From assembly GCA_043825775.1 (NCBI GenBank), contig JBDRRK010000013.1, positions 6,463 to 70,462 on the forward strand: a stretch of 64,000 nucleotides of DNA, read 5' to 3'. Source of the DNA: an archaeon. GTDB lineage: Archaea > Nanobdellota > Nanobdellia > SCGC-AAA011-G17 > GW2011-AR17. The number at the start of each line of letters is the position of its first letter. The stretch's first letter is position 1. Positions 35,683 to 41,821 of the stretch are shown one piece after another. The position numbers and the translations under genes were made by a program. The notes below the pieces were generated by a model. It did no database searches. It was given only the letters and a program-made list of their open reading frames with translations, and was not told where the DNA came from.

Positions 35683-36882
35683 TTAATATTCTATACCTAA
35701 ATTATATAATGAAAGTATTAGAAACATTACTGCACCCATTAAAAAGATTATATTAATTCCCCATAAATCAGCTAATATTCCTGCTGTTAATGGGCCTAGA
35801 CCAAGAGCAAGATGACTAGTTGAATAAAGAATTGAATTCATTTCTGTTATTTTCTTTTTAGGCATTAATTGGGTTATTCGTCCTTGAAATATAGGATAGA
35901 TTAATGAAAAAGGAATTGCAACTAAAACAGTTAATAAAAATAATATATATACTGATTTAATCAAAAACATAGCAACAAAAAGGAAGACTATTATTATTAA
36001 AGCTAGATTTACTGCCCTTTTCTTGTTTTTAATTAAACCATAATAAGGTTCGAATATTGCTGGCAAGAATAATAGGGCATAAATCAATCCTATTAAAAAG
36101 TATCCAGCATGAATCTCTCTAAAAAAAAGAGGAATCATTAATACCAAAAATCCATATGAGAATCTATAAAGAAAAATATTAACATACATTTTCATTAATT
36201 CTTTATTTTTGTAGAAGGTTCTAAATTCATTTCTATATGCTGTTAGTCTTAATGTATTTCTTAAACCAGATTGTAATGACGCTCCTTTTTTCTTATCTGG
36301 TAGAAAATTTAAAACAAATATTGCAATAAATGACGTTATTGTTATAGCATAAAAAATATTGAATCCTATCTTGTAGATTAATAAACCTGAAGCTAAAGCT
36401 CCCAATATGAATGCAGCTATTATCCCTGCATCATACATTCCAAAGGCAAGGGCTTCTTTGTTTTTTGGAGAATGTTTACGTACATATGATTCAAATGCTA
36501 TCCATATTGTAATTGATGCTATTGCATGAAATAGTGAAAAGAGAATAAAATGCCACATTAATGTTGAGTTTAATAGTATTAATGGAATTAGCATCATTAA
36601 TAAAAATCCTACAATCATTATTTTCTTTGGACGAACTTTTTCTAAAAAAACACCCATTGGAAAATCTAATAAAAATGCAAATATATAGAATAAAAACATA
36701 ATAATCCCAAAGTTAGTATAAGAACCTAATTTTTCTTGGATAAATAAAGGAAGAAATGGATTTGTAACACCCCAACCTATAACATATACAAAAGCTAAAA
36801 AAGTGGAGAGTTTAATGCTTCTTGGTAATTGCTTTAATTCTTTTAAAAAACCAATTTCTCCTCTTTTTATGTTATTTACCAT
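35683..36882 (-). CDS. MFS transporter
   Basis: About 12 hydrophobic helices in a two-repeat pattern. Confidence 0.8.
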   Translation of the reverse strand: MVNNIKRGEIGFLKELKQLPRSIKLSTFLAFVYVIGWGVTNPFLPLFIQEKLGSYTNFGIIMFLFYIFAFLLDFPMGVFLEKVRPKKIMIVGFLLMMLIPLILLNSTLMWHFILFSLFHAIASITIWIAFESYVRKHSPKNKEALAFGMYDAGIIAAFILGALASGLLIYKIGFNIFYAITITSFIAIFVLNFLPDKKKGASLQSGLRNTLRLTAYRNEFRTFYKNKELMKMYVNIFLYRFSYGFLVLMIPLFFREIHAGYFLIGLIYALLFLPAIFEPYYGLIKNKKRAVNLALIIIVFLFVAMFLIKSVYILFLLTVLVAIPFSLIYPIFQGRITQLMPKKKITEMNSILYSTSHLALGLGPLTAGILADLWGINIIFLMGAVMFLILSLYNLGIEY

Positions 36883-38165
36883 TATGGTGTGTATCTTGAT
36901 GGAGTTCTTGGAAAAGGAATTGCATCTTTAATATTGTCAAGACCACATATCCAAGAAATTACTCTTTCTACTCCCATACCAAAACCACCATGTGGAACAG
37001 AACCATATCTTCTAGTATCAAAGTAGTATTCGTAATTCTTTAAATCTTCTCCATCTGCTTTTAACCTCTTTTTTAATATGTTAATATCAGTCTCTCTTTG
37101 AGATGCTCCTATTAATTCTCCATATCCATCAGGACCAATAACATCAAATCCTAGAACTACCTTTTCATCTTCTGGATCTTCTTTCATGTAGAATGCCTTT
37201 ACTCCTTTTGGATATCTTGTAATAATTATAGGTGTGTCGTACAATTCACCTAGTTTATCTTCTTCAATTGTTCGTAAATCTTTTCCCCATTTTACTTTCA
37301 TCTTTTGTTTTTCTAATACCTTTAATGATTCTGTATATGTCATTCTTGGGAATTTTTTAGTAGCAGTTGCTTTTAATTTCTTAGTATCTCTTTTTAATTC
37401 TTCTAACTCATTACTACAATCTTTTAGAACCATTTGTACTATGTGTTTTAGTAATTTTTCTGCTTCATCTTGTAAATCATCGAATTCATTCCATACTATT
37501 TCCATTTCTGCATGCCAGTATTCAGTAAGATGTCTTGATGTGTTTGATTTCTCTGCTCTAAATGATGGAGCGACACAATATATCTTCTCTAAAGAGAAAA
37601 TTGCAGCTTCTGCATATAATTGCCAAGTTTGTGCTAAGAAAACTTCATTTCCAAAGTATGGAACTTTAAATAATGAAGATCCTCCTTCACATTGTGTTGC
37701 CTGAAAAATAGGACTTTGAAATTCATAATAATTATTTTTTCTGAAGTAATCATGAATAGCTCCGAAAACTTTGCTTCTTATTTTCATAATTGCATTCATT
37801 TTCCTTGATCTTAACCATAAATGCCTATTATCTGCTAAGAACTCTGTTGAAAGGTCTTTTGCTATTGGAAATGTTTCTGCAAAGTGAACAACATTTAATT
37901 TTTCTACTTTAATTTCACATCCATTTGGTGCTCTTTCATCTTTGCTTATACTCCCTTCAATTTCTACTGAAGATTCAACTAGAAGTTTTTCAGCATCATC
38001 CCAGAGCTTTGGAGTTTTTTCTTTCTCTACAACACACTGGATTATATTATTGGCATCCCTTATAACCATAAAAATCAGACTTTTACTTTTTCTTATTCTA
38101 TAAACCCAACCTTTGATATTGGCTTTACCTTTTGCCTTATTTATTGTTTCTTGAATGCCTACCAT
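36882..38165 (-). CDS. asnS: Asparagine--tRNA ligase
   Basis: SFRAEKS...[22 protein letters not shown]. Confidence 0.9.
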
Positions 38166-38232
38166 CCCTATAGTTAATTTATTTATATATAAAAAGATTA
38201 CCTTTTTAAATGGCTTACTTTTTCTTCTTTAT

Positions 38233-39773: not shown

Positions 39774-41066
39774 TTACGGGGTCAATCTATCCGGGTCTCT
39801 TGGTAAGAAAACAGCTTCTCGTACATTGTCCAAATTTAGAAATCTTTGGGTTATTCTATCTAATCCAAGGCCACATCCGCCATGAGGAGGAGCTCCAAAG
39901 TGAAATAACATGCTATAATCTTTCATTTCTTCAAGATTTACTCCTTTCTCCTTTGCTTGTTCTAATAATTTTTCGTAATGGTGTTCTCTCATAGACCCTG
40001 TTGCTATTTCCACTCCCTTGAATAACAAATCAAAACTTTTTGTTCCATTACCACTTTTTAAGTGGTAGAAAGGTCTTTTCTTCCAAGGATAATTTGTTAT
40101 GAATACGAAATCAGAGTTATATTTTTCTTTTACTATCTTTCCAAGAATTTCTTCTGCTTCTGGATCTAGTTCATCTGAAATTTCTTTTTTATTTTCTTCT
40201 AATAATTTTTTTATCTCTTCCATTGGTATTCTTGGTATTTTATGTGGAAGTTGTATTTCTATGTTGTATTCCTTTAGAACTTCATTGCAATTTTTATTTA
40301 ATGATTCAACTAATTCTTTTATGTACTGCTCTGTAAAATCCATTAGTTCGTTTTCGTCCTTAACAAATGCCATTTCAAAATCTATTCCTGTGAATTCTGT
40401 TTGATGTCTTGTTGTGTTTGATTTTTCTGCTCTGAATACTGGAGCTATTTCAAAAACTCTTTCAAATCCTGAACAGACTAACATTTGTTTGTAAATTTGA
40501 GGACTTTGTGATAAGTATGCTGTTTTATCAAAGTATTTCAATGAGAACATTTCAGCTCCGGACTCTACTCCTGCTGAAGTTAGTTTTGGAGTTGCAACAT
40601 TCATAAAACCATTTTTTGTAAAAAAGTTTACTGTTGTTTTGTATATTTCATTTCTTACTTTGAATATTTGAGCTATTTTAGGTCTTCTTAAATCTAAAAA
40701 TCTGTAATCTAATCTTGTTGATAGATCTGTGTTAATATCTCCTTTATCAACAACTTGTACTGGAAGTATTTGATTTACTTCACCTAAAACAATTATACCT
40801 GAAACATCCACTTCATAGCCTAGTTTTGCTATTTTGTTTTCAACTACTTTTCCATTGATTTGAACTGCTGTTTCTTGTTTTAATCTTGGGACTAGATTGA
40901 ACATATCTTCTTTATCTTTTGTTACAACACATTGGATTATTCCAGTTCTATCTCTTAATAGTAGAAATTTTACTTTTGCAAGGTCTCTTATTTCATGTAA
41001 CCAGCCATATAACTTTACATCCTTGCCTATTTCTAAGTCCTTGATTAATGTCCTCATAAGTCTCAT
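39774..41066 (-). CDS. aspS: Aspartate--tRNA ligase (archaeal type)
   Basis: LSQSPQIYKQ, FRAEKS...RH, GAPPHGG. Confidence 0.95.
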   Translation of the reverse strand: MRLMRTLIKDLEIGKDVKLYGWLHEIRDLAKVKFLLLRDRTGIIQCVVTKDKEDMFNLVPRLKQETAVQINGKVVENKIAKLGYEVDVSGIIVLGEVNQILPVQVVDKGDINTDLSTRLDYRFLDLRRPKIAQIFKVRNEIYKTTVNFFTKNGFMNVATPKLTSAGVESGAEMFSLKYFDKTAYLSQSPQIYKQMLVCSGFERVFEIAPVFRAEKSNTTRHQTEFTGIDFEMAFVKDENELMDFTEQYIKELVESLNKNCNEVLKEYNIEIQLPHKIPRIPMEEIKKLLEENKKEISDELDPEAEEILGKIVKEKYNSDFVFITNYPWKKRPFYHLKSGNGTKSFDLLFKGVEIATGSMREHHYEKLLEQAKEKGVNLEEMKDYSMLFHFGAPPHGGCGLGLDRITQRFLNLDNVREAVFLPRDPDRLTP

Positions 41067-41137
41067 AGAAATTGTTGGTTTATTTAAATATTTCTAATAT
41101 ATAAAAGTTTAAAAAGTAAATATTATTTCTAAATCTG

Positions 41138-41821
41138 ATGACAAGAAGGTTCAAGACTGATTTGTTGTTGGCTGTGTTCATAGCTGCATTAATATTAGCT
41201 AATATTCTAGGTACAAAGATTACAACTTTGTTTGGAGTTAGGGTTTCTGTTGGTATTTTCTTTGTTCCTTTGTTGTTCTTGATTACTGATGTAATATCAG
41301 AGGTTTATGGTAAGAAAAAGGCTAAACAGTTTGTTATTATTGCTATTGTTGTATTGCTTATGTTGTTTGTAATGACTTACATTTCAATATTACTGCCTGC
41401 TAATACTACCTGGGGCAATCAAGAGGCTTATCAATTAGTATTTGGCAGTTCATTAAGGATGATTATAGCTAGTATGATTGCTTTTGTTTTATCTCAGTTT
41501 CATGATGTATGGAGTTTCCATCTTTTGAAGAAGTTGACTAAGGATAGGTTCTTGTGGTTGAGAAATAATGTGTCAACAATTGTTTCTCAGTTCATTGATA
41601 CAACTGTTTTCATGTTCATTGCTTTCTATGCAATATCCCCAAAGTTTACAGTGCCATTTATCTTCTCGTTGATATTGCCGTACTGGTTGTTTAAGGTAGC
41701 TTTTGCAGCTTTAGATACTCCTCTAGTTTATGCAGGCGTTGCTTGGCTTAAAGGTAAACCTCACCAATCAAGTATATTGAACCAGAAACAAGAATTAAAT
41801 CCTCAGACTGTATTGACTTAG
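41138..41821 (+). CDS. yhhQ: Queuosine-precursor transporter (YhhQ/VUT family)
   Basis: LITDVISEVYG, ASMIAFVLSQFHD, LRNNVST, SQFIDT, DTP. Confidence 0.92.
   Translation: MTRRFKTDLLLAVFIAALILANILGTKITTLFGVRVSVGIFFVPLLFLITDVISEVYGKKKAKQFVIIAIVVLLMLFVMTYISILLPANTTWGNQEAYQLVFGSSLRMIIASMIAFVLSQFHDVWSFHLLKKLTKDRFLWLRNNVSTIVSQFIDTTVFMFIAFYAISPKFTVPFIFSLILPYWLFKVAFAALDTPLVYAGVAWLKGKPHQSSILNQKQELNPQTVLT

Follow-up and report, generated by a model that had tools for sequence, protein, structure and literature searches.

In textbooks, the queuosine family of wobble modifications is assigned to Bacteria and Eukarya, and archaeosine to Archaea. The present work deals with a 64,000-nucleotide stretch of DNA (the window) from contig JBDRRK010000013.1 of an archaeon of the Nanobdellota, in which asnS, a gene for a tRNA-guanine transglycosylase (TGT; gene tgt), an archaeal aspS and a gene for a YhhQ-family transporter all lie inside 4.9 kb; a preliminary description had reported the four as clustered within 5 kb, and each was found again at the position given there. 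The family to which the enzyme belongs, its residues and the genes around it make it quite probable that this Tgt exchanges guanine 34 (G34) of tRNA for a salvaged 7-deazaguanine of one kind or another. Gene identification was based on Pfam and NCBIfam profile searches against curated cut-offs and on pairwise alignments to solved TGT chains. Distribution in the order refers to 151 genomes and distribution in the phylum to 401, the phylum tallies counting six genomes flagged as unpublished (G350, G351, G412, G423, G446 and G478), none of whose sequences was used individually.

Several described systems come close to this locus. The bacterial Tgt enzymes of E. coli, Z. mobilis and T. maritima are proteins of about 360–390 amino acids with a single TGT domain, and the enzyme of the window resembles them in size, in its catalytic and zinc-binding residues, in passing the cut-off of TIGR00430 and in having no gene for a partner subunit, a homodimer being presumed. 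It differs from them in its archaeal host, in its base pocket (Glu157-Cys158 is replaced by Cys-Val and GGLAVGE by GGLGLGE; residue numbering of the TGT is that of Z. mobilis), and in standing without QueA, QueG and QueH downstream in the pathway and without a de novo preQ1 pathway. With the archaeosine enzyme (arcTGT, or TgtA, of P. horikoshii; TIGR00432) it shares the barrel of the TGT superfamily, the catalytic aspartates and the occurrence in archaea; nevertheless, it is not a member of that group, as it has no C1, C2 and PUA domains, stays at 174 bits where the cut-off is 350, and has no ArcS or QueF-like partner. In DPANN archaea, QueA, QueH and Tgt, with co-localised genes for QueA, a QueH-like protein and Tgt, were reported by Castelle et al. 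2021 (PMC8204110) from the phylum-level lineage and the Tgt clade to which the present locus belongs, which bears out the caution of the preliminary description that the presence of a bacterial-type tgt may not in itself be new. In fact, the basic idea was already published in 2021, and what is added here is the linkage of tgt to Asp/Asn charging, the absence of QueA from the order, the near absence of arcTGT from the phylum, the argument for preQ1 or preQ0 over queuine, and the presence of Qng1. The locus does not belong to the system of Castelle et al., since QueA occurs in none of the 151 genomes of the order and QueH was not found in this genome; moreover, the tgt of this genome goes with YhhQ and Qng1 and has asnS on one side and aspS on the other. 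In the accessible part of the supplementary text of that paper, neighbours of the synthetase, Vut_1 or Q_salvage kind are not mentioned. Finally, queuine salvage is known from Chlamydia, with bacterial TGT and QPTR/YhhQ only (Yuan et al. 2019, via PMC11570991), and from eukaryotes and Sphaerobacter, with Qng1 (PMC9881137). The first of these shares with the present case the lack of maturation enzymes in a reduced, host-dependent organism, and the second the combination of Qng1 and tgt without queuosine (Q) biosynthesis.

The tgt gene occupies positions 38233–39321 on the plus strand and encodes a tRNA-guanine(34) transglycosylase of the bacterial/eukaryotic type. The longest open reading frame (ORF) begins at 38155 but, since homologs are 361–365 amino acids long and their alignments begin at Met27, translation probably starts at 38233, for a protein of 362 amino acids. 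This protein scores 398.6 bits on TIGR00430, the bacterial G34 equivalog (cut-off 306.75), and 420 bits on PF01702, its sole Pfam domain, against only 173.7 bits on the arcTGT model TIGR00432, and the absence of the C-terminal C1, C2 and PUA domains agrees with the preliminary description, which had noted that they were missing. When compared with solved relatives, it reaches 299 bits with the E. coli enzyme, 286 with T. maritima, 258 with Z. mobilis, 247 with QTRT1 and 110 with the arcTGT of P. horikoshii. The catalytic Asp102 and Asp280 and the substrate-binding Asp156 are kept in the alignments to the E. coli, T. maritima and Z. mobilis chains, as is the zinc site CxCxxC...H (Cys318, Cys320, Cys323 and His349), and 30 relatives share the motifs, IHNLH among them. 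The genome has no other TGT-family gene, and proteins of this group are already named tRNA guanosine(34) transglycosylase by NCBI. An identity as the DNA-modifying DpdA was rejected (23.7 bits, cut-off 200).

The host is an archaeon, as the window carries a split rpoB (B''/B'), rpoA', rpoA'', NusA-KH, S12 and S7 in archaeal order between 17.9 and 26.7 kb, and all of the closest proteins and loci belong to metagenome-assembled genomes of Woesearchaeota/Nanoarchaeota, with 'archaeon isolate SI047_bin88' the nearest at 76% identity. The genome comprises 0.94 Mb in 17 contigs, has 30% GC and is rated 96% complete. None of queA, queG, queH, queC, queD, queF and queT was found in it, only weak PP-loop or Fe-S matches being obtained; because it has no de novo or maturation genes, the organism is predicted to be able neither to make 7-deazaguanine nor to mature preQ1-tRNA, and to depend on salvage only. 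The search for queA, queG, queH and arcS that had been proposed as a check of the preliminary description thus returned none of them, the ArcS models giving at most 40 bits. Furthermore, neither an arcTGT nor a QueF-family match was found in the genome, which therefore lacks the pairing of an arcTGT over its cut-off with ArcS or a QueF-like protein that marks the archaeosine pathway.

A similar picture holds for the lineage as a whole. In the order, a TGT-family match is present in 39 genomes, 36 of them over the cut-off for the bacterial type. In the phylum, where a TGT-family match of any kind occurs in 211 of the 401 genomes, a true arcTGT over the TIGR00432 cut-off is found in 8, and QueA in 56, all of them outside this order; the bacterial-type TGT accompanies QueA in 41 of the 42 QueA-bearing genomes checked. 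In this lineage the bacterial type has largely taken the place of arcTGT, and QueA is missing from most genomes that carry tgt, so that the general statement of the preliminary description, that archaea normally make archaeosine instead, fails for this phylum.

The nature of the inserted base was approached through the residues of the pocket. The published signature of the preQ1 enzymes is GGLAVG and that of the queuine enzymes GG[LS][AS]G, with Gly at 233, Val233 being held to block queuine by clashing with its cyclopentenediol ring (PMC11570991). The enzyme of the window, with Val158, Gly232 and Leu233, has neither the preQ1-type pocket of E. coli and Z. mobilis (Cys158 and GGLAVGE, with Ala232 and Val233) nor the queuine-type pocket of QTRT1 and C. 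trachomatis; in this it departs from the Chlamydia-type system and stands closer to Bartonella and Pelagibacter, which have tgt only, with a pocket of the preQ1 type. Across the order, V, M or L is found at 158, and the motif reads GGL[GAC][ILM]GE. A pocket of this type (LDDVPHY/GGLAIGE and GGLGMGE, for instance) is also present in the TGTs of many QueA-bearing relatives and, in a quick maximum-likelihood tree, the TGTs of the order and the QueA-linked ones interleave in one clade with 100% support in the Shimodaira–Hasegawa-like approximate likelihood ratio test (SH-aLRT). Since QueA acts on preQ1-tRNA and its linked orthologs have this same pocket, the pocket is compatible with preQ1, and its interpretation as a queuine pocket was rejected on the same ground. 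The parsimonious explanation is that the order retained a preQ1-type (or preQ0-accepting) enzyme and lost QueA. Consequently, of the 'queuosine-type salvage' put forward in the preliminary description, salvage stands by the gene content, while its queuosine-type character is weakened by the missing queuine signature and by a pocket common to QueA-linked orthologs; an unprocessed preQ1 or preQ0 is no less likely than queuine. That the base would be preQ1 or its nitrile precursor preQ0 is given slightly less than an even chance. As for the diversity of these pockets, among the 30 TGT sequences extracted from the order the pocket is of bacterial type in all but that of genome G133 (L015). This sequence falls in a second, well-separated TGT clade of Nanoarchaeia, with the canonical D-E-C and a one-residue deletion in the GGLAVGE motif (GIGSI-FGDPK, GGA-FG--R), which comprises L196–L200, L202, L203, L205–L207, L209, L212 and L216 besides L015; 13 of its 14 members come from QueA-bearing genomes, and the 14th (L015, G133) from the QueA-less order.

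Direct salvage of queuine, as in eukaryotes, Sphaerobacter and Chlamydia, would offer a different account of the same genes, in which Q or Q-5'-phosphate from degraded bacterial tRNA is taken up, Qng1 frees queuine (or YhhQ imports it as such) and Tgt inserts it, yielding full Q34 without QueA, QueG or QueH. Indeed, tgt, yhhQ and Qng1 without queA, queG and queH form the standard genomic signature of that pathway (PMC9881137, PMC11570991), and the genome does encode a Qng1 (DUF2419) homolog on another contig (G000:C12:96387-97355), with 271.8 bits on PF10343 and 217 bits to the Qng1 of S. thermophilus. In its alignment to 7UK3 and 7U07, Lys199 of the helix-hairpin-helix (HhH), the nucleophile Asp231, Tyr232, Trp302 and the C-terminal Tyr are all kept, residue roles being taken from PMC9881137. 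In addition, Val158 is also found in QTRT1, residue 232 is Gly, and at high concentrations of queuine the TGT of B. henselae uses this base in spite of a preQ1-type pocket (PMC11570991). Nevertheless, position 233 is Leu here, and I, L or M across the clade, whereas every described queuine-type TGT has Gly there, and the QueA-linked orthologs use the same pocket. The present set of genes departs from that of eukaryotes and Sphaerobacter in that Qng1 has Asn where the base-recognising Asp298 is expected, as do most of its homologs in the order, in that there is no QTRT2 partner, and in that the Qng1 gene is unlinked to tgt; moreover, 8 of the 12 Qng1-bearing genomes of the order, some of them 96–98% complete, have no TGT-family gene. 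Queuine salvage is therefore regarded as possible, though doubtful.

The transporter gene (yhhQ/QPTR; COG1738, Vut_1), at 41138–41821 on the plus strand, scores 171 bits on PF02592 and 175 bits on TIGR00697 (cut-off 50.95), in agreement with the YhhQ importer that had been noted two genes from tgt, but remains at 62.9 bits on the E. coli-type equivalog NF008406, below its cut-off of 252. In the order, YhhQ is present in 13 genomes, 4 of them with a TGT-family match (3.4 expected by chance), and Qng1 in 12, also 4 of them with such a match (3.1 expected); neither is enriched with tgt among the 151 genomes, the proximity of tgt and yhhQ in the same arrangement is kept only within the genus (G121), and this genome is the only one of the order to have all three genes. 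A conserved three-gene pathway of tgt, YhhQ and Qng1 is not claimed, given this chance-level co-occurrence. With regard to the wider role of both families, the Qng1 homologs of the eight TGT-less genomes of the order (G052, G047, G093, G127, G148 and others; loci L038–L045) mostly have Asn at 298, and their occurrence there implies a role independent of tRNA base exchange. Likewise, YhhQ/Vut_1 transporters, sometimes in two or three copies, are found in TGT-less genomes of the order (G004, G020, G024, G026, G054, G088, G110, G115 and G146), where the substrates of the family are probably not those of TGT. The major facilitator superfamily (MFS) genes that lie beside asnS and beside Qng1 were considered as nucleoside importers and rejected, as they are unrelated to each other and their adjacency is not conserved.

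The clearest regularity of the locus concerns its neighbours. A class IIb Asp/Asn synthetase gene is the commonest neighbour of tgt, standing beside it in 18 of 34 loci of the order (19 with one more distant case) and in four families. Within the host's family, archaeal aspS and asnS lie on either side of tgt, while three other families have, in divergent orientation to it, a bacterial-type aspS of about 590 amino acids, followed by gatC, gatA and gatB; gatA and gatC were not found in the present genome. Among 80 species-level relatives compared over 3-kb flanks, 41 have a charging gene beside tgt (asnS in 27, bacterial aspS in 21 and archaeal aspS in 12), related genomes not being independent in these linkage counts. 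The clustering of tgt with Asp/Asn synthetase genes is more than chance, and the linkage has outlived the replacement of the partner by non-orthologous genes. This survival argues for G34 of tRNA-Asp and tRNA-Asn as the likely substrate, and against a general role at G15; the view of the preliminary description, that the two cognate synthetases support modification of position 34, is thereby strengthened across families. Regarding the arrangement in other families, the operon aspS-(plsC-like acyltransferase)-gatC-gatA-gatB divergent from tgt is found at L053:1614-7402 and also in L056, L057, L067, L071, L072, L078, L079 and L081, and L071 has a bacterial and an archaeal aspS side by side in one genome.

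The synthetase adjacency could also be a functionally meaningless leftover from the transfer of a bacterial block (tgt together with aspS-gatCAB), with tgt weakly selected or decaying in an order devoid of QueA. The bacterial-type aspS-plsC-gatC-gatA-gatB neighbour in three families would fit the import of a whole block, tgt is patchy (39 of 151 genomes) and a few of its copies are split or have in-frame stops. Here, however, tgt is intact with all catalytic and zinc residues, and the linkage persists with non-orthologous archaeal aspS and asnS, which block inheritance does not predict. Furthermore, the locus is built of two divergent pairs, so that both salvage genes are paired with a synthetase gene over promoter regions of about 70 bp: asnS (36882–38165, minus strand; 490 bits on NF003037, cut-off 414, and 452 bits on TIGR00457) is divergent from tgt across a 67-bp A/T-rich spacer (38166–38232) in which a TATA-like tttatatata was read, and the archaeal-type aspS (39774–41066, minus strand; 516 bits on NF003483, cut-off 353) is divergent from yhhQ across an A/T-rich spacer of 71 bp (41067–41137), likewise read from the sequence. 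Such a leftover is thus held to be very unlikely.

Still less probable, and hardly to be expected, is that Tgt replaces the missing arcTGT and places preQ0 at G15 of many tRNAs, or acts at another site than G34. It is true that arcTGT is missing from this genome and from nearly the whole phylum, this Tgt being the sole enzyme of its family in the genome; that preQ0, being small and uncharged, would fit well into the closed hydrophobic pocket; that YhhQ-family transporters import preQ0; and that tRNA-Asp has a G15. Nevertheless, the enzyme is devoid of the domains (C1, C2 and PUA) by which arcTGT reaches G15, it matches the G34 equivalog with 398 bits as against 174 for the arcTGT model, and there is no ArcS or QueF-like gene to complete archaeosine. 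Moreover, a specific linkage to Asp/Asn charging genes is unexpected for a modification of almost all tRNAs, and the orthologs co-occur with QueA, a position-34 enzyme.

In the preferred reading, that of an unprocessed preQ1 or preQ0 at G34, YhhQ, and possibly another carrier too, would import a free 7-deazaguanine base made by other organisms, and Tgt, acting as a homodimer (no QTRT2-like partner gene is present), would swap it for G34 in the U33-G34-U35 loops of tRNA-Asp, tRNA-Asn, tRNA-His and tRNA-Tyr. The inserted base would be the end product, because there is no QueA, QueG or QueH, and the benefit would be a better reading of NAU codons, by which tgt would be held beside the Asp/Asn charging genes. 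A predicted substrate, tRNA-Asp(GUC), lies in the window itself (17469–17578, plus strand), immediately upstream of tRNA-Lys(UUU), and was located by a hairpin scan and then read by eye. It has the anticodon loop CUGUCGA (U33-G34-U35), discriminator G73 and a G15, and its T-loop is interrupted by an intron of about 33 nt. Because of this insert, it reaches only 18.8 bits, below threshold, on the Rfam tRNA model; it was also missed by ARAGORN. Intron-bearing genes for tRNA-His(GUG) and tRNA-Tyr(GUA), with U33-G34-U35 loops, lie on other contigs. NAU makes up 81–88% of NAY codons, and NAY 16.8% of all codons, so any modification that helps G34 tRNAs to read codons ending in U would be of consequence in this genome. 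Several tRNA genes have introns in non-canonical places, for instance between D-arm and anticodon arm, and ARAGORN assigns them wrong anticodons; examples of intron-bearing or misread genes are C15:75783-75888, C3:13287-13381, C2:9734-9835 and C15:47495-47615, among which Ile-GAU, Gly-UCC and His-GUG were recognised by eye.

A narrower proposal, which we consider unlikely, is that Tgt is a dedicated partner of Asx-tRNA formation. A terminal G34 modification of the preQ1/preQ0 type (or queuine) would then tune recognition by AspRS, AsnRS or GatCAB, or the decoding of GAU and AAU, and this would explain why tgt has stayed beside the charging system of each lineage through at least two non-orthologous replacements.

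Some observations weigh against an unprocessed base at G34 and its import by YhhQ. Terminal preQ1 or preQ0 in tRNA has been seen in nature only in traces, in Bartonella (PMC11570991), and Qng1, known for freeing queuine, is present with most of its catalytic residues, which points to queuine. As regards the pocket, Gly232 occurs in 22 of 29 TGTs of the QueA-less order as against 1 of 17 QueA-linked members of the clade, a difference confounded by phylogeny, and could reshape the pocket. Since 32 of the 39 tgt-bearing genomes of the order have neither YhhQ nor Qng1, YhhQ is not a general partner of tgt. On the side of the substrates, the tRNA-Asn candidate (G000:C15:76997-77099) splices to GUU or UUU, its folding fitting either, and only 25 tRNA genes exceed the Rfam threshold in the genome.

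Other features of the window surround this locus. An MFS transporter gene (35683–36882, minus strand; 137 bits on PF07690) overlaps the asnS stop by 1 bp with its start and, given this overlap, is probably co-transcribed with asnS, although among the related loci compared a weak MFS homolog adjoins asnS only in the same-genus genome. Between tgt and aspS, an acidic ORF of 146 amino acids and without family (39301–39741, minus strand) has no Pfam or NCBIfam match and no homolog in 30 related loci; it may be no genuine gene at all, or else one that evolves fast, and was rejected as part of the system for want of a family and of a conserved homolog. Downstream, the 3' ends of yhhQ and the convergent folC have 74 bp in common (41748–41821), which is unusually long for a convergent overlap, and a folate block follows, with folC (41748–42848), a serine hydroxymethyltransferase gene (44079–45359) and a ThyX homolog (45806–47362, minus strand). 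The latter, with 518 amino acids, is about twice the usual length and gives two Thy1-domain matches (the best at residues 299–487), which suggests a tandem or fused ThyX. The GatE of the window (48599–50005, minus strand) has 468 amino acids, compared with about 620–630 for the family models, and is matched in two stretches, so that it looks as if it were without an internal domain. GatD (53480–54799, minus strand) lies 3.5 kb from GatE, with a TtuA/NcsA-like tRNA thiolation gene (50518–51414) in between, and the 20-kb stretch around both is rich in tRNA charging and modification genes. Finally, archaea usually encode EF-2 directly after S12-S7; in the window, this place is taken by an ORF of 601 amino acids (26744–28549, plus strand) with no Pfam or NCBIfam match.

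As for the biology of these organisms, the lineage appears to have dropped archaeosine and taken up the bacterial enzyme, without the means to make or to finish the base. If this is true, it would mean a tRNA micronutrient dependency in ultra-small archaea, and a possible clue to the identity of their hosts. The neighbourhood of tgt, aspS, asnS and gatCAB is, in turn, a handle on the role of the G34 modification in Asp/Asn decoding or charging. Should the dedicated role in Asx-tRNA formation prove true, this would be the first G34 7-deazaguanine shown in Archaea, as well as the first unprocessed precursor base serving as a functional end product.

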